A stretch of DNA of 64,000 bases from assembly GCA_001662655.1 (NCBI GenBank), contig KV460228.1, one strand, 5' to 3'. The position numbers were made by a program, and so were the translations under genes. Below, piece by piece: positions 14,349-41,373 of this stretch; the first letter of the stretch is position 1; each line of letters begins with the position of its first letter. The DNA comes from Pseudogymnoascus verrucosus. Lineage: Eukaryota. The notes below the pieces were generated by a model. The model had not been told where the DNA came from. It worked only from the letters and a program-made list of their open reading frames with translations, and made no database searches.

Positions 14349-15932
14349 TCATATCATCTGCGACACACCACCATGCTCCAGTAACAACTTTACCACAGCA
14401 TCGTAATCACTCTTCCCCCCCAACGGATAAACCTCACTCCTTCCCTTATCATCCATCGCCAAAGCCAGCGCCGTGCGACCGCTCATATCCGGCGCATTCA
14501 CATCCACACTCCCCCCTTCCAACAGCAACCTCACCACCTCAACCTGCCCCGACTCCGCCGCCGCAGCCAGAACCGACTTCCCCTTAACTTCATGCGCATT
14601 AAAATCCACCCCCTCACACTCCATGAGCATCTTCACCACCTCCATCCTCCCCCACTTCGCCGCCAACATAAGCGGCGTAACCCCATCATAATCTCGCGCA
14701 TTAGCATCCAACCCCCCCCGCAACAGCAACCTAACGACCTCTACCTCACCCTTGAACGCCGCAATAGCCAAAGCCGTCGCCCCGGACCCCTCTTCGCGAA
14801 TATTCATATCCAAATCCTCGCGCTTTAAGAGCAACGGAATCATCGCCGCCCACCCATGCCTTGCCGCCAGTCCTAGAACCGGCGTCCCATCCGAGCCGCG
14901 TGCATTCACATCCACATCCTTCCTTTGCAAAAGCACCCTCACCGCCTCCACCCTCCCCAGCTGCACCGCCCACAACAAAGCCGTCTTCCCCTTCCCATCG
15001 CGCTGGTCAACTCTCACATCCTCCCTCTTCAGGAGCGTCTCCACCACCTCCGCATGGCCCCTAGTCATCGCGCATATCAGCGGCGTCGCCGCCGTCTCCG
15101 AAACGCCATTAGGATCCACATCCCCCCGCTCTAGCAACATATCCACAACATCCCGATGCGCCATCCGCGCCGCTAAGCACAACGGCGTGGCCCTTTCCCT
15201 GCAGAGCATGTCGGCAGCTACATCATCACGTGCCAGCAGCATCGCGACGACGTCGACGTGGCCCCCCATCGCGGCAAGCGCTAGCGGCGTCCGAAGGGTA
15301 CGATGCTCCTGGAAATTTGGGTTGACGTCGTCGCGCGCTAGGAATAGGGCCACGACAGGTGTATGCCCGTGCATCGCGGCCCATCCGAGGGCAGCACCTC
15401 GGCTCTCGGCGCGGACATCAGGTCGCGTGAGGAGGAGGGCGGTGATGGCGAGGTGGCCGGCGCTGGCGGCGAGGGCAAGGGAGGAGAGCGTGCGCATGAA
15501 AGCGGCTTCGGGGATGATGTCGGCGATGGTGGAGGGGTGGGCGAGGAGGGATTGCACGGCTGCGAGGTGCCCGGCGTGGGCGGCTAGGGAGAGGGGCGTG
15601 CGGTTGAGGCCGGGGTAGCGGCGGCCGGGGAGTGTGCGGCCGTCGGGGGAGTTGCTGAAGGTGAAGAAGGGGATGGTGGCGAGGGGGTTGGGGTCTGTGG
15701 AGGGGTTGGCGAGGAGGGTGGTTAGAAGGGCTGAGTCTCCTCGTTCGGCGGCGAGGTGAAGGATTGTCTCCTTGTTTTCGCCGGAGGCACGGATTTGTGC
15801 GGGGGAGAGGGAGGAGGCAAGGTGAGGGAGGACGCGGAGAAGGGAGAGTAGGTCGTGGGGGTCCAAGACTTGGTCTGCGATCAGATGGATTATTTCAAGG
15901 GGGAGATCGGAGAATGCTGCTAGTTTGTTCAT
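14349..15932 (-). CDS. F-box-like N-terminus + ankyrin repeat protein
   Basis: FSDLPLEIIHLIADQV; about 12 TPLxLAA..GH..VV..LL repeats. Confidence 0.9.
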   Translation of the reverse strand: MNKLAAFSDLPLEIIHLIADQVLDPHDLLSLLRVLPHLASSLSPAQIRASGENKETILHLAAERGDSALLTTLLANPSTDPNPLATIPFFTFSNSPDGRTLPGRRYPGLNRTPLSLAAHAGHLAAVQSLLAHPSTIADIIPEAAFMRTLSSLALAASAGHLAITALLLTRPDVRAESRGAALGWAAMHGHTPVVALFLARDDVNPNFQEHRTLRTPLALAAMGGHVDVVAMLLARDDVAADMLCRERATPLCLAARMAHRDVVDMLLERGDVDPNGVSETAATPLICAMTRGHAEVVETLLKREDVRVDQRDGKGKTALLWAVQLGRVEAVRVLLQRKDVDVNARGSDGTPVLGLAARHGWAAMIPLLLKREDLDMNIREEGSGATALAIAAFKGEVEVVRLLLRGGLDANARDYDGVTPLMLAAKWGRMEVVKMLMECEGVDFNAHEVKGKSVLAAAAESGQVEVVRLLLEGGSVDVNAPDMSGRTALALAMDDKGRSEVYPLGGKSDYDAVVKLLLEHGGVSQMI

Positions 15933-16418
15933 GGTTTCGATGCCAAATTTGGCGTTTGTTTTGTTGTTGGGCTATCCTGGTTTAACTAAGGCGATTGACG
16001 GTGTTGAGCATGAGTGAACTCTAGTATGATTATTGCCAGCCTTGGCGTTGATATGGAAGTAAAGGCAGAGGAGCGCAATATGACTTGAAGCAAAAGATTG
16101 TCGCAACCTACGATATTTATCGCTAACCATGCAGATTGAGAAATAAATAATGCTAGTGCGAGTGCGAGTACGCAGTTGTGGTTTATTCGTCCAAACTGCC
16201 TTGCCGCTCCGCTCTCAGTCGGGGTTTAGCGGAGTAAGCAATTGATGCCATCCTCATAGAGCCGACACTTAATATAAACCTCATTTTAGAATAGTACACC
16301 ATCAGACGGGAAGCGGTGCGTCTTTCAGCCTTCTTAGCGCCATAGTTTAGATCCGCTAATTTAGGTTTGGCGTGCACTATTTAGGCATGACAGCCTGCTG
16401 ATCTAGAACACGACCCTT

Positions 16419-16533: not shown

Positions 16534-16904
16534 TGCACTCTTGATCCAGTATGATAACTATCGACGTCGTTGAGCAGCTGCGAAATATTATATATCCTAA
16601 ATGTACACCCGTTTCACAAGTGAGACTGGCACAAAGCGCAGTAGATCCTTGCATTGTGATGGCTAAGTAATTGGCTGCTCATAGGTGGGCAGTGCAAAGG
16701 CTGTGTTATGGTAGTGTCTGCTGCACGACGCAATCTCCTATAGAGATAAGCTTGCTCGGCCGAAGTTCATAATCTGACAAGGCTAGATATAATAATGAGT
16801 TGTCCCTCTTTATTTTTTATCTGTTTATTTGTTATAAATACCATGTGAAGTTTCAGCATCTCCCTATCAACCCAATTTCGGCTTTCCACTACCTTATAAA
16901 CACC

Positions 16905-18947
16905 ATGCTTTCATGCCTAGGGTGTAGATCAAGCAGCAGCACCAGCCGCAAAGGCAAAGAGACGTCGGATGGCATCAAAGTTAGGGTAATGCCATCCTCG
17001 ACACCAGTTCCTCCACCAGCGTCATCCGCCAGCGGCAAAAAGACTTCAGATGGCATCATAGTTAGGGTAATGCCATCCACGGCACAAGCACAAATTTCCC
17101 CATCAGCAGCGGCCGTCGACCAACTCGTCTCTAGGCAATATAGAGGCAATGGCACGGGCACTACAGCCAACCCTACGCCGCCGCGGTTGGCTCATACTAT
17201 TCTAGCTATAGCTCAAACTATTGGATCTACCAATACGCAGCAGGTTGGCTCCGACGCTTCTACGCCCTTTAAACGCCTAGTGGAACGAAGTATCTCCGCA
17301 TGGTCTTCTCTGCGATTTTGCCAAGAAAATAAATATTACAATATTCACCTACACGCCACGGCCTTAAGGGGAATGAAGTCCCTAGATGAAGTGCTTAACA
17401 GCCGCACACCAATCTCGCAGATGTGGTTTTTCCAACTCAAGAGTTCGTTCATGCAACAGAGCAGGTTTACTCAATGGGACGAGTCACGATTAGATGACTA
17501 CGTTTTGATTCCCGTTGCTGCTGGGTTTGTCAACAAGACCGACTGCGTTTTCGTCAGCCACTTCTGGCGCACAACTCAACATCCCGATCCTGAGGGGTTA
17601 GATCTCAACCTACTTCGTCAGGATCTAGCCGACTCTAGGTGCTCGTATGTATGGGTAGATTGGACATGTCTGCCTCAAGGCAAGCTATCCGACTTACAAA
17701 AGTACTATTTCCAAGTCTCGCTCCGCAAATTACCACTATTAGTAAGAGACTGTGGCTATTCCTGGAGATTCCCCGACTTCCAACCTAGGTTGTGGATCTT
17801 ATTTGAAGTAGCCTGCTGGCTCTTCAACCATGAGAGCTGCGTCGAGTACGACGACATGGCGGGATATATCTCTGATTGCAGGGAAATGGTCCAGGTTGGG
17901 GTTAAAGCAGTGGTGGATAAACGTAAATATAAGTGCACGAATGGCGGCGACACGCGAATAGTGACGAGCTGGCTGGAGTTGCTAGTGCTTTTATATAAAC
18001 ACGTTCCGTCTATATCGACTAGACGAGACCTCTTGGACACAGTCGAGGGCTTTCATGCTACTACCATGGCGGAGGTGAAGTTCTACAGCGACGACGATAT
18101 CTCTGTTGACGTGGTGGGAGGAAAGCTGGTGGTGGGAAACAAGACTTACAGTTTTACCCCTATTCCACCTCCCTCCGTTACCAGACCAAACGTGACCCGC
18201 ACAACTAGAGAGACCTCAACCCACGACGTTACACCCAGCGAGGAGAAGGCGCTCATAGAAACCGCAACCCGCGACCTCGAATCCGACAACCCCGCACGAC
18301 TCACAGAAACCAACAAGCTAATCGCCGAACTCCTCAAGAAAAACCAAAACCTCGCCGCAGCAGAAACGCTCGCTCGAGCCATGAAGTCCCACACCGACAA
18401 AACATACGGCCCCAACCACGTCACCGCAATCACCAGCTCTCACCGTCTCGCACTAGCCTGCCAAGTCGTCGGAAAGCAATCCGAGTCCTCCGCTCTCCTC
18501 GCCCAAACCCTCTCCCTAAAAGGCGCGCTCATAGACGACTCCATCCAGCGCGGCGGCTTCGCCTCAGCATCCTCTATCTGCCGCGAAATCGTCGACTTCG
18601 ACGAGCAGTTTCTCACGAAAGCCGAACCCGAGGCGATCCGCGATATGGGCGTTCTGGGAACGTGTCTGTATCACCAGGGCAAGCATGGGGAGGCGGACGC
18701 ACATCTAGGGCTGGCGGCTGATTTGGCGGAGTTGATGCTTGGGCGCGGCGCGGAGTATACGCGCTTGGTGATGCTGGATTTTGCTAGTAATTGTGCGATG
18801 CTGGGGAGGTTTGAGGAGGCGGATGAGGCGTTGAAGAGGGTGGGGAGTGTTGCTGAGAATCATCGTCATGCTAGGTTGATTAGGCAGGCGAAGATGATAC
18901 TTGAGCAGCAGCGGAGAAAACAGAATGCTCAATATCTTGTTTTCTAG
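16905..18947 (+). CDS. HET-like (TIR-related) domain + C-terminal TPR repeats
   Basis: FVSHFW..HPDP, YVWVDWTCLPQ, RLWILFE; TPR-like GPNHVTAI..LA and LGTCLYHQGKHGEA; likely ATG 16905 (CACCATG); single exon. Confidence 0.75.
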   Translation: MLSCLGCRSSSSTSRKGKETSDGIKVRVMPSSTPVPPPASSASGKKTSDGIIVRVMPSTAQAQISPSAAAVDQLVSRQYRGNGTGTTANPTPPRLAHTILAIAQTIGSTNTQQVGSDASTPFKRLVERSISAWSSLRFCQENKYYNIHLHATALRGMKSLDEVLNSRTPISQMWFFQLKSSFMQQSRFTQWDESRLDDYVLIPVAAGFVNKTDCVFVSHFWRTTQHPDPEGLDLNLLRQDLADSRCSYVWVDWTCLPQGKLSDLQKYYFQVSLRKLPLLVRDCGYSWRFPDFQPRLWILFEVACWLFNHESCVEYDDMAGYISDCREMVQVGVKAVVDKRKYKCTNGGDTRIVTSWLELLVLLYKHVPSISTRRDLLDTVEGFHATTMAEVKFYSDDDISVDVVGGKLVVGNKTYSFTPIPPPSVTRPNVTRTTRETSTHDVTPSEEKALIETATRDLESDNPARLTETNKLIAELLKKNQNLAAAETLARAMKSHTDKTYGPNHVTAITSSHRLALACQVVGKQSESSALLAQTLSLKGALIDDSIQRGGFASASSICREIVDFDEQFLTKAEPEAIRDMGVLGTCLYHQGKHGEADAHLGLAADLAELMLGRGAEYTRLVMLDFASNCAMLGRFEEADEALKRVGSVAENHRHARLIRQAKMILEQQRRKQNAQYLVF

Positions 18948-27403: not shown

Positions 27404-29692
27404 ATGGACCCACTAAGCATCACCGCCAGCATTATCGCCATCCTAGACCTCACAACCAAAGCAATCCAATATCTCGGCGACGTTAAGGATGCCCCCAAAG
27501 CCCGTGCGAGCCTCGCAATCGAAGCCTCGAACCTGTACTCGCTCCTCATGAACCTACGATACCGGCTTGAAGAGGGACGATCTAATGAGGCGTGGTACAC
27601 GGCGGTGAGGTCGCTCGGGGTGCAAGGTGGGCCGCTTGATCAGTATAAGGATATGTTGGAACGGATTCAGCATAAGCTTGGCGGTGGGGGGAGTTGGATT
27701 AAGGAGGTGGGACAGTCGCTGGTGTGGAAGTTTAGTAAGGAGGAGGTTAGGGGGTTGTTTGTGAGTATGGAGGGCTTGAAAGGATTGATTGCGGTTGCGC
27801 TGGAGATGGATCACTTGTAAGCTGCTGTCATAGATATGAGGGATAGATGTATGCGGTTGCTCACCTTTCTTAGCAAATTGTCGCAGGCGATCAAAAGCGC
27901 GGTGGATTGTCAGGGAAGGGAGTTGTCGCTTCAGATCGATGGTCTCGCTCAGGATTTTCGGGACGAGAAGTTTATGCGTGAGCAGGAGAGTATTGGTGAG
28001 GTTTTCGGCCTTCGCTGAGATCGCTTTCGACTAATTCGGTTCGCAGATGGCCTTCATCACGAACTCTGCGGTTGGCTCAGTCCTTGTAATCCGGAGATGT
28101 TACATTTGAAAGCCTGTGGACACCACCATAGTGGTACGAGTGGGTGGTTCCTCGAAGGCTCGCTCAAATGGCTGGTTCAAAATAAGTCAGATTCGTCTGC
28201 GATACTGCTGCTAAAGGGAACCTGTGAGTTCCCCATCCGTGTCCTTAGTAGGCCTAAAAAAATTCTAACTCTCGTAATTATACAGCCGGAACTGGCAAGA
28301 GTACTCTCATGTAAGCCGGCCTGCTAAACTTCCAAATATTGTTCTCACTCTACTAGGTCACAGGCTATTAAACAAGCCAAATCCGACGTGGGACAGGACC
28401 CGGTCCTCTACTTCTACTGCTCTTTCGACGACCAGGCTACTCAGGATCCAGTTAACATTCTCGCTTCTTTCATTGTCCAGCTTTCGCACCAGGTACCTGA
28501 GCTACTCGACGACTTTATGCCAGAATATCTCAAGGCGAAACAACACTCTACACCTGCGCAATTATCAATAGAGCAACTCGAAAAGATTTTCATGGCGCAT
28601 ACGCGAAGTCTACCTCACGTGTTTTTGTTTCTTGATGCCGTCAATGAATGTCAGGATGCCTCCGCCATTTCTGATCTCCTCGTTCGACTAGCACTTCGCT
28701 GTAGCAATCTCAGGATGCTCATTACAAGTACTCGGGAGTTAAACAATCCCGAACCGAGTGGTACGCTTCAAACTCTAGTAGTGCAAATGGACTCAAGTAG
28801 CGTGACTAAAGATATATCCATCTTTGTCGATGACATGCTTGCACTAGATCAAGGATTAAGAAACGTTACTATGGAACTGAAAGCTGATATTAGATCAACG
28901 GTGATAAGTAACTCAGACGGCATGTAAGTTTTCTAACAATATACCATTTAAACATCCGGTCCATCTGCTTATATCCCTAATAGGTTCAGGTACGCTAGGT
29001 GGCTTATGAACCATCTCGCCGAGCAAAGGACCGGAAGAGCCATAAGGAAGGCTCTTACTGAAATGCCTACCAGTTTGAACGAAATGTACGCCATGCTTCT
29101 AAACAGAATACCCAAATCATCTCCCGATCGCGAACTCCTCCGCCGCTGCCTCGTATGGCTTTCTTTCTCAACCAGGCCTCTGAGGCTAGCAGAGCTGGCT
29201 GAGGCAGTTATTCTGGAGGACACTAGCGAGAATGTCGATAGCGACGACAGACTGCATTCGCCGGAGATCCTTCTTGATATATCGCAGGGGCTGTTTGAGG
29301 TTGATGGTAACAGTGGACGAGTTGCTCTTGCGCATTCATCTGTGAAAACATTCCTGCTCTCTAAGTGGATACAAAATACCTCGGTTGCGGATTTTTCGAT
29401 GGATGACGCGAAGGGGCATGGTGAAATTATTCGTTTGTGTCTGACCTACCTGACACTTTCTGGATTTATTAGTGGATGGGGAGAAACAATGGAGGTTACG
29501 GAAACTAGATTCAAAGAATATCCTCTCCTCGAATACGCCGTTGAAAACTGGCTAGGCCATTCAAAAATCGCCAATTACGAGTTCCAGATGTGGTCCAAGG
29601 TGACCGAAAACACTAGTTCCCACCACCTAAATTTAGGTATGCGGACCCTCGAATGGTGGGCAGGCTATCACTGGGGGCGTTCAAATTTTTAG
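27404..29692 (+). CDS. Fungal NLR-like protein: HeLo-like/SesA-type N-terminal helical domain + NACHT + winged helix, no C-terminal repeats
   Basis: MDPLSITASIIAIL..WKFSKEEV; Walker A GTSGTGKS and Walker B LFLDAVNEC; RPLRLAELAEAV, LAHSSVKTFL; introns 27817-27873, 27996-28046, 28224-28285, 28311-28356, 28924-28983. Confidence 0.85.
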
Positions 29693-32004: not shown

Positions 32005-34862
32005 CTAAGAGAAGCAGGAACTGCACGCTAGAAAAGCAAGATCATCTGACAGAGAAACGGCATCCGGCCGGACTTGCGATATCATGCGCTTCGTGAGTTT
32101 CACCACTTCGCCGCATTCCGTCTCCTTGTCGCCAAATGACAGCTGCTGCAGCCACTCAACAGCCTTAACCTCGTTTAGCCCGCGATAGCTGTATCCAGGC
32201 TCCTCAGGCGACTTCTGAAAAATATCCCACACCTTCTTGCCAGCGATGACGGTTAACATCTCAACATAGACGCAGCCAAGCGAGAAGACATCCGTCGTTA
32301 ACGTGCGGTCGCCCCCGTCGGCGACCTCTGGTGCGCTATAGGGAGCAGTATGGCCGGTTGGTCCCCTTGTCACGTCGCCTGGACTCTGGAAGACGTGTGC
32401 CAAGTCAAAATCGGTGTATAGGATATTATTGCCATGCACGAGCAGGTTAGAAGGCTTAATATCCTTGTGTTTAACCTGATTGCCATGGATGTACGCAAGC
32501 CCATGTGCTAGACAGCCTAGCCACTGAACTAGACTTGCTGGGTCGGCAACGGCACCGCCCTCGTTGTTCATGTACTTCTTTAGATCCCACTCGGCGACGG
32601 GCTTCATTAGAATGAAGGAGTTCGGACTTCTTGAATAGGACCCTAGAATCTCGACGATATGAGCATGCTTGAGTTGCTCCATGATTAGCACTACGTCTGC
32701 AAACTGCTGCCGCCGCGCTGCGGGGATGCGCATCGTCTTGCGCGCACAAATGGAACCGCTTGCGAGGCTCTCTACCATGTCTACATAGCCCATGTTGCCA
32801 GACCCGAGCTCCCTACGGAACTCATACGGGTCCGACTCACTGCCATTCAGAACAATATGCCGCGGTAGGTCTAATATGTCGCCATCCAGGCCCACCTCGT
32901 CCGTGTTTAGTTCTTGCATCCTAGCCCGTAGGAGATCAGCGATCTTGGTGTGCCTGACAAACTTAGCAGCCTGTAGGGCCGTGCCGTGCAGTCCGCAGCG
33001 GATGAGCGGGTCGGCGCGGTATTCTAGCAAGAGCTCGACAATTGGCAGGTGGCCGTGGTAGGCTGCCGCTTGGAGGGCCGTGCCATGAGTACCGCCGGTG
33101 TCATCGATGTCGCTCTTTCCGATTTCGAGGAGTTTGCGGGCCAAGGACGTTAGGCCTAAACAAGAGATGTAGTACAATGGCGTCGAAACGCTAGGAGGTC
33201 TGTTCGAGACATTTATCTTAGAAATCCAGGGCCGATCAGGGTCAAAGAGCCTAACCCAATTCTGTATGTATAGGCCTCCGGGGCCGTGGAAGAATTCGGT
33301 GACTACAGGGAGCAGGCGGTCTAGGTTCTCATGCGAAATGCTGGCCTGTTCCACGTGGTAGTACCAGAAGCGCGCGGCATAGTCGGCAAGCGGGAACCGC
33401 AGGCGGTAATCTGATGAGCTGAGAGCATCAGCGCTATCTAAGAGGCATAAATACCGCAGACACGCGTGGGCGATTTCAAAATGAGGGTTCCAGTGTGACA
33501 GCTCGACATCCATATAGGTGCGGATTGTGAAGTGGGCGAGAGACACGCCTTGGTAGCTCTCGTCGGCAGTTTGAATTGTGGTCGTATGTAATAGTTCTGG
33601 GCATATATTCAGGACATCTTCACCCTGGAACAGCTGCTTCTTGGCTGACACGATTGGGTCGACTGCTACGTTAATTGCGACTACTTCTGATACTTCGTCG
33701 ATCCGTAGTGGGCGGCGCGTGTACCCTACCCATACTAGGACCTTCTCTGTATCCGCTGATCTCTGGAGAGACCCGTCTACATATGTCTTATACAAATCTG
33801 CCAGACCTTGTGGCAAAGTGTATAGAGCACTTTCGACCTGTTGTAGTTTATGGAACCGCTTAAGCTCTGCGAATACGAGGGTAGCCCATACGAACCTATA
33901 TATTCATTAGTTAGAACGCCCCCGTGTAGTCCTACAGTTATTGTAGTGACCTGTTAACTCGCACTTACGATCCGTGGGCCCTATCACCTACCATTCTTAT
34001 CACATGCTCCTTAGTAGTATCTGGCCAGTCTAATTGTTCTGATACCCTTGCTGTAATTAGACTAAGGATATCCTGATGATTTCCATCGGCGGTGATAACG
34101 CAATGCAGATGATGCTTTCTCTTTAAGTTATAGATAGACGGGAGCGGCTGGGCGGATAAAAAGAGGTGCAGTCCGTCTAGCTTCCAGTCGAGCATACTCT
34201 CCAAGGTGGCGATGAGGCGGCGGATATCGGAACACTCGTCAACCGCGTCGATGACGATAAATACCTTAGAGAACTTCCTCACAGCAACGGCGAAGGCGCG
34301 AAAGAGCAGCTCAAACTGCGGTTGCTCGCCGTTGGCCACATCCCCGAGGACCCTCAGCTCGGTAGGTACTACACCCAGCTGGTGGCAGAGCTGGAAGAGC
34401 ATGGACGAGAACAAACTCTCATCTGTAGCCCGCCGTAGGTCATTCATCTTAAAATAGTAGTACAGGACAGCCGTCGCCGACTCGCTAGACCTATGCTCAT
34501 CTCGCAGTGCATCGATGACCGTAGAACTAGTTACTTCTTAGTGATAACTCTTCATAATTAAGATTGGTTAGTTAGTAGGACTTACCATAAGACTGTCTTC
34601 CCGGTGCCAGCTGTATTAACAGAGGTCGAGTTAAATCAAGACTAAAATAACAACCCTAACAACACACCTCAAAGGGCCGAAACTTACGTGATCCTGCTAG
34701 CAAGAAAGCCGTATTCTTCCCTGTCGACCACGCTTGGTACTCCGGGTGCTCGAACAGCCAGCAACTAGCACTTTCGACGATGTTAACAGAAGCAGACACA
34801 TGTGCCTCTTCCTGGAGCTGGTGATTTAGCTCTAGGAATTTAGGCAAATGAGATATATCCAT
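32005..34862 (-). CDS. NLR-like protein: NACHT + winged helix + ankyrin repeats + C-terminal Ser/Thr protein kinase; no recognisable N-terminal effector
   Basis: Walker A GSPGTGKT split by introns (34687-34611, 34585-34527); Walker B IVIDAVDEC; intron 33968-33896; RPLRIDEV, GTALQAAAYHGH; kinase LGSGNMGYV, ARK, HKDIKPSN, DFD, APE, DVFSLG; start codon uncertain. Confidence 0.88.
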
Positions 34863-35163
34863 TGTCCTCAAGCAACCTAAGTTGTTTTGTAGCAGTGAAG
34901 ATCCGCAGTGATCGGCTTACTCTCGGTACCTCGTAAACTAGACACACAAGCCGTTTGAGAGCACGCACGACTACCTAAAACTCGGCTTCGCACAACCAAC
35001 TGCGATGAAGAATAGCTAAGCACGGTTTTCAGGATCGTTCTACTATGTCGTGAAGCTTCTAGAGCATTGAACTTAACAGTTCGTGCCTCCACTATACTCG
35101 CCTAAGTTATGCATGCTGCTCCTGCGAGGCTGGCGGCTATGCTCTCCGCTGATTCGCTACAAT

Positions 35164-35275
35164 TAGCGTGCGTCACGGGGGACCGACGGTTCCAAACCGC
35201 CGTCTGAAGGTTTTCCAACCCGGACCGGACCGCCCCATGGCCCGGTCTAGGGTCGGTCCCCCGTGGCGCAGGCTA
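35164..35275. mobile_element. 112-bp non-autonomous element (hAT-like MITE) with 24-bp TIRs and 8-bp TSD
   Basis: TAGCGTGCGTCACGGGGGACCGAC...GTCGGTCCCCCGTGGCGCAGGCTA (2 mismatches), flanked by GCTACAAT at 35156-35163 and 35276-35283. Confidence 0.8.
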
Positions 35276-35511
35276 GCTACAATTGCTCTAACAAACAAAC
35301 ATGCTGCATTTTGCACAGAGAGGCACACCGAGACAACGTCTGCTGGCATTGCATCCTCTTTTTACTCGGTCAAATCTTATCTTCCACTGTAAAGACCATC
35401 GCCTACCAACTTATCTTGCTACATGTAATATACAAGTATCGCACGCTTGCTCGAAACCCCGTTGCCTCTTCCTTAACGCTTTTACAAGGCTGCGGTCTGT
35501 GATATGCGATA

Positions 35512-37606
35512 ATGGATCCTGTTTCTTTAGCCGGCCTTGGTCTTGGTGCAGCTTCAATCACTTTTCAAATATTTGAAGGGATTAAGATGGGTTCGTAACG
35601 AGCATAACCCTTCCCCAACGGGACCTCCATCCTAGATCGTATGCTAACGTCGCATATTGGTAGGTTACGGGATATTTGAGGATGCGGCCGACATGCCAGA
35701 GCACTGTGAATCGCTAAGGCTGAGGCTGCGGCTCGAATGCACTCGCCTCCTAGACTGGGGCGATCTTTCTGGCCTTTCGGAACCCGAGAATCATTCGAAG
35801 TTCGATCGGAAGCTAAAAGCAAATCGGGCAACTATTATAGCCCTTCTGAGCGAGATGAAAATGATAATCGACAAGATCCAGAAGATAAGTCTACGATCTG
35901 ACTGTATCCTGCTCCCCGGCATCGACATCGCAGCGGCCCAAGGAACTAGTATGGCTAAAGAGCTGCATCTAGCTAATGGGAAAGAAGATCTTAAGGGCGT
36001 CGACATAGAGCAGTTTTGCAGCATTCTTAGGCCCATGGAGGACCAGCTCAACAACAAGAAGAGAACCCTATTAACAAGGAGTTTGAGACGAGTTGTAGAT
36101 ATCGGCCAGGGTATAGCAGACGTTGCTAAACAGCCCGGCCGCATTCGCTGGGCCCTAAGTGATAAAGAAGCATTCCAGACCCACGTTAGGCGTCTAAAGG
36201 AGCTAACAGACTACCTACATGAGACTCTTGGTGATCACCAGATGAGCATCCTGATTGAACAGACGAAGGAGACGTGCATGGCTATGCTGCAGATGACGAG
36301 CTCCATTAGCGAGATGAAGGAGCTTATTGAGGCAGTCGAGATTGCAACTAGCCATGCCAGTATTGAGTCGGAAACACGCGCCTGGCTGCCTCTTGGTGAC
36401 TTTGTAGATAGACAAGCTTCAGTCAGCGAGTCTGTCTCAACAATCTCTATACTAGAGCGTCGAGAGACGCTATTTACCCAGCTGACAGAATTTCGATATC
36501 ATGTAGCTAGCCTACAAATTGGTGTGCCAAAGAATAGAGAGGTAACGGGTCTTAAACTCCAGGGGAGGGAGCTAGATAATCTAAAGTTCGACCACACCAG
36601 GGCGACAGGCAACGGCCGGACCCCGGCAACCTATCTGGGAGCGGCAGCTTGGGTAGAGTGGAAGGCCTACCGCATCACTCGACATAAAGATGAGCATGGC
36701 AAATTCTATTACGGCCCTACGCCTCTCGCCACGGCCAACCTAGAGCGCTTAGCAGCCATTCTCCACATAGACAAGCGGCCAACACAGTTCCGCGTGCCGC
36801 TATGCGCCGGATACTTTGATGACGAAATCAACGAGCGCTTTGGGCTTATCTATCAAGTGCCCTACGCAACACCGCAGTTGGCAGAAACCATCTCTCTATC
36901 CCAACTATTGCTACAGCAAAATAGCCTCCCCCCTCTCCAGAGCCGCATCCGTCTTGCCAAGGAGCTTGTGACCTCTCTCTACTTTCTACACGCCGTCAAC
37001 TGGCTACATAAAGGCCTCCGCGACGAAAGCATACTTGTCCTAACGCAGAATGGACGTCCGGACTACTCCCAGCCATTCATCAGCGGCTTCGAATACTCCC
37101 GCCCGGACGAAACTGACCTTACTACGACCGCGGCTCCGGATACTTGGGCTGTATACGCCCATCCAGACTACCAGGGCTTCGACAGGAAGACTTACCGCAA
37201 GACCTTTGACATTTACAGCCTAGGAATTATCTTGCTTGAGATTGCCTTGTGGAAACCGGCCGAGGAGATTCTCGGCTTTGGGCAGCCCTCTGTGTCTACT
37301 GGAGAGAAGAACAAATCTCCGGGAACAATGGACGAGTCTCAGGAAAAGAAGGTTTATTCGAAGGATTCTCTACAAGATCTCAAGAACATCAGGAGCCGCC
37401 TTCTCATAGACGAGCCGTCTCTGCTCGAGCAAGTCCGCGCGACGATGGGATCTCGGTATCACGACGCGGTGAAATCCTGCATCGGTGGTCTTGAGTATTT
37501 CAACCTTCCGACTGAAGCCGACGAGACTAGCCCAGTCATAGCGACTCTACTCCAGCAGGCGTATCTCCGTTTAGTGGTGGATATCTTACGAAGTATCAGA
37601 GTGTGA
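35512..37606 (+). CDS. HeLo (HET-S-like) domain + pseudokinase (MLKL-like architecture)
   Basis: Exon 1 MDPVSLAGLGLGAASITFQIFEGIKM, intron 35591-35663; LRLRLRLECTRLLDWG, IRWALSDKEAF..V.RLKELTDYL; kinase-fold WVEWK, LHKGLRDESIL, GFEYSR, YAHPDY, DIYSLGIILLEI. Confidence 0.88.
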
Positions 37607-39487: not shown

Positions 39488-41059
39488 CTAATACATCTCT
39501 TCATCAGAGTCTAGATGTAAACCAACAGGCTCATTTCCCGAAAGAAATTCCCCAACGCCATAATTTCCTACAGCCAGAGCCACGTCCAGCGGAGTCCTGT
39601 CACGACCGTCCCGTGCTGCCGTATTAGCGCCCCTTTCAACTAGGAGCCGCACTATATCAATAGGTATCCCTCTGGCGCCGGCGGCGGCATGAAGCAGTGT
39701 GTTTCCCTTATCCAGCTTAGCATTCACATCCGCACCTTCGTCGAGCAGGATCCTCATGGCATCTAGGCGACACTTGCGCAACGCTTCGAACAGCGGCGTG
39801 TACCCGCCACCTTCGAAACACCTTAAATTGACATCACTACCGGCATCAATCAGCAACTTCAGCGCATCTAGTGGCGCATAAGCTGCTGCTCGATGAAGTG
39901 CTGACAAGCCTTTGACGTTTGTTGATGTAACCTCGGCACCTGCCCCTAGAAGAATTGTGATCATGCGAGCATCCGCCCCCTTTGCCGCCCAGTCAAGCAC
40001 CGCTGCCCCCAAATTCGTTCTAGCAGAGACTTGACTCCCATGGCTGATGAGCAGCTCGCACATCTCGTGTTGATTATATCTCGCAGCCCTATGCAACAAG
40101 GTTGACCCATCTTTTTCCCGACTCATGGGATCGCAGCCCATGCTTAGTAGAAAACTGACCAGCTCTAGATTCTTTGATTTGACAGCCATATAGATTGGCG
40201 AGCGGTTTTCGCGGTTACCCGTGCAGACCTCTGCACCTCTGTTAACAAGCAGCATTACGATATCTAGGTTTCCGTTGCTACAGGCGAAATCTAGAGGCGT
40301 CCATTGCCGTCCGTCAAAAGTGGAGACGTCTGCACCTCTGTCAATAAGCAGCTTTGCGACATCTATGTTTCCGTTGCTGCAGGCGAAATGCAGAGGCATC
40401 GATTGCCGCTCTTCGATAGCAGAAACGTCTGCACCTCTGTCAATAAGCAACTTTGCGACATCTAGCTCTCCATTGCTGCAGGCGTAATGCAGGGCGGTCC
40501 ATTGCCGCTCTTCGATAGCTGAGACGTCTGCACCATGGTCTAAAAGAAGCTGCACGACTATAGGGTAGCCAAACATAGCAGCTAGATGCAGCGGCGTGCG
40601 ACCTTTATAACCGGTGATAGTATAATCCGCTCCATGGCTGAGGAGGACCTTGACGGCATCATAATGTCCGCTTTGAGATGCAGCTGCTAATGGCGTTGTG
40701 GAGCAGTCGCCCTGGATCTGTGGGCAGGACACCCACTTCAGGGCGAAATTATGTTCTACGTGCAAGAGATATTCGAGGATATATACTTGGTTATTCCCGG
40801 CCGCGAGGTGGAGCAGCTTGCCCATGTCGATATCAGATATTATTCCAACGGACTGCGCATTCTGTAGAGTTTTGAGCTGGCCCGTCCATGCTGCCCAAAA
40901 TGGCGACTTTTGGTCGACCGCATCGCGACGGTAGAGCGAGGGGGTTAGTAAATTGTAGAGGTATTGATTTACCCTTAAGAACGCCGCTAGCTCATTTTGT
41001 GAATGGAGTTCGCCTCCAATAGCTAGTAGAAGCTCGGCTGGGAGATCGAGGAGCTGCAT
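39488..41059 (-). CDS. F-box-like N-terminus + ankyrin repeat protein
   Basis: MQLLDLPAELLLAIG..LRVNQYLYNLLTPSLY; about 12 ankyrin repeats. Confidence 0.92.
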   Translation of the reverse strand: MQLLDLPAELLLAIGGELHSQNELAAFLRVNQYLYNLLTPSLYRRDAVDQKSPFWAAWTGQLKTLQNAQSVGIISDIDMGKLLHLAAGNNQVYILEYLLHVEHNFALKWVSCPQIQGDCSTTPLAAASQSGHYDAVKVLLSHGADYTITGYKGRTPLHLAAMFGYPIVVQLLLDHGADVSAIEERQWTALHYACSNGELDVAKLLIDRGADVSAIEERQSMPLHFACSNGNIDVAKLLIDRGADVSTFDGRQWTPLDFACSNGNLDIVMLLVNRGAEVCTGNRENRSPIYMAVKSKNLELVSFLLSMGCDPMSREKDGSTLLHRAARYNQHEMCELLISHGSQVSARTNLGAAVLDWAAKGADARMITILLGAGAEVTSTNVKGLSALHRAAAYAPLDALKLLIDAGSDVNLRCFEGGGYTPLFEALRKCRLDAMRILLDEGADVNAKLDKGNTLLHAAAGARGIPIDIVRLLVERGANTAARDGRDRTPLDVALAVGNYGVGEFLSGNEPVGLHLDSDEEMY

Positions 41060-41373
41060 TGAGGAGTTGCATCGATAAAAATTATCTGGATTTATCGTTC
41101 TTGGGGGCGAAGCGCAAAGTCTATGTTGACAAATTTGCAGTCAGACTGTTTTTTGAAGCGCCTTGGGGAACAACTTTGGTTGGCTGGCCAAGATTTACAT
41201 TACATAGGACACCCCATCACATTTCCCTTCACAGCGCAACAGGGTCCTATTGCCATAACTCCACCATCAAGCTTATACTATGCCTTATATATAGAAGGGT
41301 CTCTTATCCGAGCCCCAAGTCCCACTACCATATGAGAAATTGACCAGCCTTGTGGTTATCGTGGCGTATAATT

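Follow-up and report, generated by a model that had tools for sequence, protein, structure and literature searches.

Do two genes that stand head to head in the genome of Pseudogymnoascus verrucosus encode the sensor and the executioner of a single cell-death switch? The pair occupies positions 32005-37606 of a 64,000-nucleotide stretch of contig KV460228.1, which as a whole is referred to here as the window. One gene encodes a NOD-like receptor (NLR) with a NACHT domain, ankyrin (ANK) repeats and a C-terminal kinase, and the divergent gene encodes a HeLo domain joined to a pseudokinase. In an initial sequence-only reading the pair had been proposed to act in the manner of RIPK3 and MLKL. The two proteins, their relatives and the neighbourhoods of these relatives were examined, and by analogy the gene pair is probably a two-gene cell-death switch resembling animal necroptosis. 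For the whole explanation, a two-component regulated-cell-death module, a probability of about 0.5 is given. Functional coupling of the two genes is considered highly likely, and coupling by phosphorylation in the form described below has close to even chances, if anything slightly lower.

The genes and their domains are arranged in the window as follows.

32005..34862, minus strand: NACHT-ANK-kinase gene VE01_05656 (protein P0001, 882 aa), from the identity of the query open reading frame (ORF), exon mapping and Pfam
34862-34689, 34525-33968 and 33894-32008, minus strand: exons of VE01_05656, an exact map for residues 1-58 and 68-882
about 34622-34596 (approximate), minus strand: P-loop mini-exon of VE01_05656, residues 59-67 (PGTGKTVLC), read by eye
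32005-32007, minus strand: stop codon of VE01_05656
33968..34862, minus strand: 35 domain-free residues at the N-terminus, followed by a NACHT/NPHP3_N NTPase whose Walker A reads GTGKT (Pfam)
33000..33400 (approximate), minus strand: short ankyrin block of about 2-3 repeats, residues 498-583 of P0001 (Ank_2, E 2.5e-13)
32008..32880, minus strand: C-terminal Ser/Thr kinase domain with Gly loop, ICARK, HKDIKPSN, DFD, SAPE and CxxC tail (Pkinase, E 7e-32)
34863..35511, no strand: divergent intergenic spacer, presumed to be a shared promoter, 649 bp between the two ATGs
35512..37606, plus strand: HeLo-pseudokinase gene, from sequence reading, the N-terminus of relative P0121 and the Pfam HeLo match
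35512-35590, plus strand: exon 1 of the HeLo-pseudokinase gene, encoding MDPVSLAGLGLGAASITFQIFEGIKM-G
35591-35663, plus strand: intron of the HeLo-pseudokinase gene, 73 nt
35664-37606, plus strand: exon 2 of the HeLo-pseudokinase gene
35512..36361, plus strand: HeLo domain, whose N-terminal helix (MDPVSLAGLGLGAASITFQIF) is hydrophobic and rich in Gly (PF14479)
36640..37603, plus strand: pseudokinase domain of DUF7580 type, with VEWK, HKG (catalytic Asp gone), GFE (DFG Asp gone) and the loop SRPDETDLTTT

The 632-aa minus-strand ORF used as the query was 100% identical to NCBI protein P0001, the product of VE01_05656 of P. verrucosus. On the full protein, Pfam placed NPHP3_N at residues 35-191 (112 bits; NACHT 32.7 bits) and Pkinase at residues 610-801 (E 1.2e-31). 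With a STAND NTPase carrying Walker A and C-terminal Ank_2 repeats, the product of VE01_05656 is an NLR of the NACHT type. Its kinase has the Gly loop LGSGNMGYV, the β3 Lys within ICARK, HKDIKPSN and SAPE; the DFG position reads DFD. The kinase domain scored 462 bits on the hidden Markov model (HMM) of its own family and was the sole match to this model in the 64-kb window. Only about 35 residues lie ahead of NACHT, and the minus-strand ORFs upstream gave no match to a Pfam domain. The N-terminal 30-33 residues showed no conservation in the orthologue at metagenome locus L001, and no effector or conserved motif was recognised in them. An NLR of this kind, having neither an N-terminal effector nor a conserved motif, would therefore need a partner.

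The candidate partner starts across the spacer. The gene model of the HeLo-pseudokinase is consistent with the N-terminus annotated for P0121, a protein with 91% identity. The HeLo profile PF14479 matched with E 4.6e-24 and 85.8 bits against a cut-off of 23.2, over profile positions 19-205 of 205. The Pfam matches of the same protein to Pkinase and DUF7580 were weak, the latter under the cut-off at 20.6 bits. The kinase fold was recovered by modelling. The AlphaFold2 model of P0121, made from a 32-sequence alignment, had a predicted local distance difference test (pLDDT) of 72.6 and a predicted template modelling score of 0.76, and its residues 320-673 form a complete kinase fold (BRAF 6u2h_D, Z 22.4, root mean square deviation 3.1 A over 264 aligned residues; CTR1 3ppz_B, Z 22.3). 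The sequence-only reading had described an NLR with no evident N-terminal effector ending in a kinase, a HeLo domain fused to a kinase fold without its catalytic residues, and a divergent spacer of about 650 bp. This observation of the gene pair proved correct in every particular. In the L001 orthologues the corresponding spacer measures about 390 bp and again separates divergent genes.

The loss of catalytic residues is a feature of the family. The HRD position reads HK[GSAE] in 32/32 relatives, and the DFG Asp is missing in 31 of the 32, replaced by G, S, N and others; P0129 keeps D. The activation segment of the window protein, GFEYSRPDETDLTTT, had been singled out for its candidate phosphorylation sites, and these candidates stand up to comparison: a Thr or Ser is found 5-8 residues past the RP of the conserved SRP in all 32 aligned relatives, and, judged by eye, in the activation loop of all 42 distinct segments encoded by the metagenome loci. 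Residues 506-517 of the P0121 model, with pLDDT below 50, coincide with this Thr/Ser-bearing loop, which is disordered in the model. When the profile of the pseudokinase family was compared with the PDB, IRAK4 came first at 6.5e-11, and MLKL and LIMK1 were tied at 1.4e-7. Because IRAK4 ranks ahead of LIMK1 and MLKL, the pseudokinase domain is taken to be tyrosine kinase-like and near MLKL, not specifically MLKL.

In the AlphaFold2 models the HeLo part is a helical bundle; the HeLo domain modelled separately had a pLDDT of 69.6. The best matches of the separate model in fold searches were DinB-type four-helix bundles (Z 10.1), and the coiled-coil (CC) domain of Rx gave Z 6.7, both below the caution level for helical bundles. 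Foldseek returned no match to it at E <= 0.001, and HET-S and MLKL were not among the matches listed. In searches with the full-length model, the matches listed were taken up by kinases. The HeLo assignment of the window protein is a prediction that rests on the HMM.

The NLR form of the pair recurs. In Chaetomium globosum, an NLR-kinase with 59% identity (CHGG_10770) and a HeLo-pseudokinase with 65% (CHGG_10769) carry neighbouring locus tags on a single contig of 868,772 bp; we take Pseudogymnoascus and Chaetomium to be fungi of different classes. At L001 the two genes were seen directly and are divergent. In three further pairs the two proteins agree in source and in the length of their contig (19,518, 28,119 and 102,195 bp) and presumably lie on the same one. 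Altogether, six of the ten NLR-kinases with at least 44% identity were paired with a HeLo-pseudokinase, and the other four were not assessable.

The association was then followed from the side of the HeLo-pseudokinase. An alignment of this family was searched against metagenome contigs of the Joint Genome Institute (JGI), which gave 188 relatives; the best 80 loci were kept and fell into 48 non-redundant groups at >=90% nucleotide identity. An HMM was built from the NLR kinase domain, and a match of at least 100 bits was counted as strong. Strong family-kinase matches were found in 24/80 loci, or 16/48 groups, each no more than 4.1 kb from the HeLo-pseudokinase; of the 31 groups whose upstream sequence extends for 2 kb or more, 16 have a family kinase. 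When each group was represented by a member picked for the largest flank, the 313,878 bp lying up to 5 kb from the HeLo-pseudokinase held 16 family kinases, and the 220,583 bp farther out held none. The kinase is divergent in 10 of the 16 groups, upstream on the same strand in five and downstream in one. The HeLo-pseudokinases of these groups share only 27-61% identity with the query, and the surrounding genes differ. In two kinase-positive groups some members are without the kinase. The pairing is beyond chance and the linkage is strongly non-random, which is what the sequence-only reading had proposed to look for across fungal genomes: the NLR form recurs, and a kinase stands near the HeLo-pseudokinase and not far from it.

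The identity of the neighbours was taken from Pfam on 283 non-overlapping flanking ORFs of 41 loci. The kinase neighbours are as follows.

L001: NACHT-ANK-kinase
L003, L005, L008, L012, L014, L018, L021: kinase-only, directly upstream, divergent
L029: kinase, then an ANK-bearing ORF
L064: kinase-TPR protein
L040, L045, L048, L062, L028, L042: same-strand kinases

Thus in 15 of the 16 kinase-positive groups the neighbouring kinase is stand-alone or fused to ANK or TPR repeats and has no NACHT domain. The HeLo-pseudokinase therefore has the kinase itself, and not the receptor, as its partner; fusion of the kinase to an NLR is one form of a module of kinase and HeLo-pseudokinase that is older than the fusion.

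Some loci differ in the genes beside the HeLo-pseudokinase. The partner kinase of L040 lies in an indel of about 3.9 kb (L040:4974-8910) that is missing in L019 (L019:8368-8503), with flanks 89-97% identical, and the kinase-TPR gene of L064 and L074 is absent from L068. A fragment with a 39-bit match to the family-kinase HMM lies 86 bp upstream of otherwise kinase-less HeLo-pseudokinases (L016:7624-7866 and L017:9475-9717, both minus strand) and may be a decayed partner. A gene for a patatin-like phospholipase recurs beside the HeLo-pseudokinase at L028:3632-5221 (minus), L042:8640-9491 (plus), L078:7456-9366 (minus) and, as a weak match, L048:2747-3604 (minus). In several loci it sits between the kinase and the HeLo-pseudokinase, which suggests three-gene clusters of kinase, lipase and HeLo-pseudokinase. 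The neighbouring patatin genes were searched for a second pseudokinase domain, and none was found. A search for proteins in which the kinase is fused to the HeLo-pseudokinase gave one weak candidate, P0329. Another protein, P0185 (1407 aa), holds two family kinases, an internal HeLo domain and a pseudokinase of DUF7580 type; it was rejected as a true fusion, being more likely a merged model of adjacent same-strand genes, and was therefore counted as adjacency.

The neighbouring kinases belong to the family of the NLR kinase. Their scores on the NLR-kinase HMM ranged from 102 to 196 bits; three housekeeping kinases of the same loci reached 43-75 bits. H[KR]DIKPxN and DF[GD] are kept in 16/16 of them, and the catalytic motifs are nearly invariant over 17 NLR-kinases. 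A C-terminal CxxC tail is common to the NLR kinases and several neighbour kinases (e.g. L003, L012, L014, L021, L045). The identity matrices of the kinases and the HeLo-pseudokinases were correlated, with r = 0.87 over 22 pairs (Mantel 0 of 5000), and r = 0.80 over 16 pairs when the NLR clade was removed (Mantel 0 of 5000). The correlation therefore points to long-term co-inheritance and not to random recruitment; alone it is no proof of interaction. A FastTree tree of the kinases, with no support values and only two outgroups, was used as a rough guide only.

The best solved matches of the NLR kinase were CDPK and CDK2 (1.6e-19), with CDK2 at about 2e-30 by profile. RIPK was not among the 60 best solved-structure matches listed, in either the direct or the profile search. 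The idea that the two genes share a homotypic, duplicated domain was discarded: BLASTP between the NLR kinase and the pseudokinase gave only a weak generic match (E 0.008), so the two are not close paralogues. An exhaustive search for kinases of the family brought 146 new representatives, and the closest 53 were scanned with Pfam; 13 of these carry ankyrin repeats, one TPR and four a fungal lectin, and no FHA domain was found among the 53. Many of P0187-P0201 are large proteins with ankyrin repeats and two tandem kinase-like domains, four of them with a fungal fucose-specific lectin, and may represent another sensor-kinase architecture of the same family. A motif ahead of the kinase, approximately [LM]x[DE][FY]x5-8[FW]xW, is seen in the stand-alone kinases of L003, L005, L008, L012, L014, L018, L021, L028, L042, L045 and L048.

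In the mechanism that we favour, the HeLo-pseudokinase would be an MLKL-like executioner, a membrane-attacking helical bundle restrained by a dead-kinase domain, and its partner an active-looking Ser/Thr kinase of the fungal H[KR]DIKPxN family. In Pseudogymnoascus, Chaetomium and their relatives this kinase forms the C-terminal part of an effector-less NACHT-ANK receptor. A ligand or danger signal would cause the NACHT domains to oligomerise, by which the kinase domains would cluster and become active. The kinase would then dock on the pseudokinase domain and phosphorylate the conserved Thr/Ser of the flexible activation loop. Phosphorylation of the loop would release the HeLo domain, which would oligomerise and permeabilise the membrane. 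We infer the binding, the phosphotransfer, the direction of signalling and the cell death.

How close does this come to systems that are already known? MLKL itself carries GFE at the DFG position. As with RIPK3 and MLKL, the executioner here would combine an N-terminal killer domain of the four-helix-bundle type with a pseudokinase that has lost the HRD and DFG Asp, and the partner has an active-looking kinase; the window pseudokinase shares the GFE of MLKL, which is among the best solved matches of its profile. The fungal partner kinase differs in being nearest to CDK2 and CDPK, in being fused to NACHT-ANK or stand-alone, and in its gene being adjacent to that of the executioner. No RHIM was apparent by eye in P0001, and no motif search aimed at RHIM was made. 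Common descent of the whole RIPK3-MLKL architecture is not shown, because the kinase is not RIPK-like and IRAK4 beats MLKL. Of the RIPK3-MLKL-like module that had been proposed, the MLKL-like layout of a HeLo bundle and a pseudokinase was supported, the pseudokinase state being family-wide, and the kinase turned out not to be a relative of RIPK3. The comparison is best read as a well-founded analogy, and not as homology or a demonstrated mechanism.

A review (PMC12881547) describes the fungal two-gene clusters NWD2/HET-S and PNT1/HELLP, in which an effector-less NLR adjoins a gene for a HeLo or HeLo-like effector and signalling is by amyloid. The window pair resembles these clusters in that an NLR without an effector of its own adjoins a HeLo gene. 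It differs from them in that both proteins end in kinase-fold domains, so that the coupling would be kinase:pseudokinase. An amyloid motif shared between the N-terminus of the NLR and the C-terminus of the HeLo protein was not found: the window protein and its L001 orthologue have nothing in common over the roughly 30 residues that precede NACHT, and the HeLo protein ends in a kinase C-lobe helix. The earlier remark that neither protein has an amyloid motif agrees with this. The plus-strand gene is a member of the Ascomycota proteins with HeLo and DUF7580 (PF14479 and PF24476); DUF7580 is precomputed on most of its relatives, and the same domain content is found in several Atlas clusters, which have 50-104 members. 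In the full-text literature, with subscription journals outside the coverage, neither a description of a kinase/HeLo-pseudokinase gene pair nor the term 'DUF7580' was found.

Several observations weigh against the phosphorylation switch. No family kinase lies nearby in at least 15 of the 31 groups that could be assessed, among them a subfamily that has a Metallophos gene as neighbour, and the loop Thr is kept in these all the same. Genomes that are about 95% identical also differ in whether they have the kinase gene. Co-divergence is equally expected of any two linked, vertically inherited genes. At the DFG position the window clade has DFD, and P0002, an 80%-identical NLR-kinase, has EFD, so full catalytic competence is not assured; the EFD of P0002 comes either from faulty sequencing or assembly or from a protein that can do without catalysis. 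Moreover, according to PMC12258605, corsep-1_g4273 pairs a kinase of the window type with its own N-terminal HeLo-like effector. In such an all-in-one layout a transmitting kinase seems unnecessary, which fits a sensor role of the kinase.

This sensor role is the core of the main competing explanation. The C-terminal kinase would be bait or a guarded domain, and the HeLo-pseudokinase a helper-executioner recruited by kinase:pseudokinase heterodimerisation; death would follow from proximity, or from modification of the kinase by a pathogen, without phosphotransfer to the HeLo protein. Such a scheme resembles the plant ZAR1-RKS1-PBL2 system; there and in the plant MLKLs a helical-bundle death domain, a pseudokinase and a partner kinase come together in immunity. 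The plant systems have other domain fusions, and the likeness is drawn from general knowledge, without sequence comparison. A kinase placed C-terminal to the repeats, where the sensors of NLRs usually stand, fits this explanation, as do the DFD and EFD variants and the fact that the kinase is polymorphic for presence and absence, as immune loci typically are. The text and tables of PMC12258605 report 12 Sordariales NLRs with Pkinase, nine of them with the kinase at the C-terminus, and propose these kinases as integrated decoys of CHK2/PRD-4; eight of the 12 begin with a HeLo-like effector and have the architecture HeLo-like-NACHT-(Ank)-Pkinase, corsep-1_g4273 among them (Table S3). Another, cornov-1_g8924, has the layout T-NACHT(37-242)-Ank(359-551)-Pkinase(611-892), which is the layout of P0001, and was assigned to the family of the window gene from layout only.

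The published target misfits this type of kinase. In Table S11 of the same paper the distance to CHK-2 is 0.32-0.41 for the kinases of HeLo-like NLRs, 0.63-0.67 for cornov-1_g8924 and 0.73-0.78 for corsep-1_g4273, the latter two being 0.22 apart; because both are far from CHK-2, the idea of a CHK2 decoy does not suit the window kinase, and the CHK2-like kinases belong to the HeLo-like-NACHT-Ank-Pkinase proteins. The lack of FHA in the closest 53 representatives and the nearest solved kinases, CDPK and CDK2, speak in the same direction. A neighbouring HeLo-pseudokinase is not mentioned in the passages and files of PMC12258605 that were covered. A decoy also sits poorly with partner kinases that are mostly stand-alone and receptor-less, and with the strong conservation of the kinase catalytic residues and of the pseudokinase loop Thr. 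This explanation is judged rather unlikely. Regulation could also run in reverse, the pseudokinase activating or scaffolding the neighbour kinase as KSR allosterically activates and scaffolds RAF, with the kinase signalling elsewhere and HeLo serving mainly for membrane recruitment. The pseudokinase fold is indeed nearest to RAF and CTR1 (Z 22), linkage and co-divergence are conserved, and the fusion of many family kinases to ANK, TPR and lectin modules suggests outputs of their own. Against it speak at least 15 groups in which the HeLo-pseudokinase persists with no kinase linked to it, and the role of HeLo domains as death effectors in PMC12881547; it is considered very improbable. The two genes might finally be linked yet functionally independent, brought together in fast-evolving non-self-recognition neighbourhoods by joint descent or co-regulation only. 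A window region rich in NLR-like, ANK and TPR genes would suit independence, and correlated divergence is expected of any linked genes. It is hard to reconcile with a pair kept in Pseudogymnoascus and in Chaetomium, presumably across classes, with recurrence in 16 groups at 27-61% identity in three orientations and among differing genes, and with a far flank of 221 kb that holds no family kinase. Independence is likewise thought very unlikely, and the phosphorylation-coupled death module is retained as the best explanation.

The surroundings of the pair in the window contain further genes of related types. A second NLR-like gene fragment (28328-29689, plus strand; NPHP3_N, E 6e-19) lies about 2.3 kb past the 3′ end of the NLR-kinase gene. 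The pair is flanked by ankyrin-only ORFs at 14352-15971 (minus strand) and 16773-18944 (plus strand) and by a TPR_12 ORF at 39491-41140 (minus strand). The 14-41 kb part of the window looks like a non-self-recognition neighbourhood amid housekeeping genes (DHODH, PRMT, Per1, DEAD helicase, Brix, BRF1, Yme1).

What would the pair mean for the biology of these fungi? Tentatively, and with somewhat less than even confidence, it may be one form of an old, mobile, Pezizomycotina-wide two-gene death switch. An 'HKDIKP' kinase would phosphorylate the loop Thr of the adjacent HeLo-pseudokinase and so unleash a membrane-permeabilising bundle. Sensors would be bolted onto the kinase (NACHT-ANK, ANK, TPR or none), and a patatin lipase would sometimes be a third member. 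The links known so far between fungal cell death and necroptosis are the HeLo/four-helix-bundle (4HB) domain and RHIM-like amyloids; to our knowledge no kinase step has been described. The pair would extend known kinds of system, the fungal NLR/HeLo clusters and the MLKL-type executioners, and it suggests how the C-terminal kinases of fungal NLRs might be understood other than as the decoys proposed in print. A 2025 review urges wider exploration of HeLo/4HB proteins and of the extent to which necroptosis is conserved (PMC12881547). The conserved pair of kinase and HeLo-pseudokinase brings this question down to two genes whose expression would allow it to be tested, and its sensor fusions form a natural series for comparison. 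If the explanation is true, this would be the first non-amyloid, phosphorylation-coupled pathway from an NLR to HeLo, and a kinase-to-MLKL-like necroptosis axis in fungi; the interplay of kinase and pseudokinase on which necroptosis is built would then seem to be older than animals or to have evolved twice.

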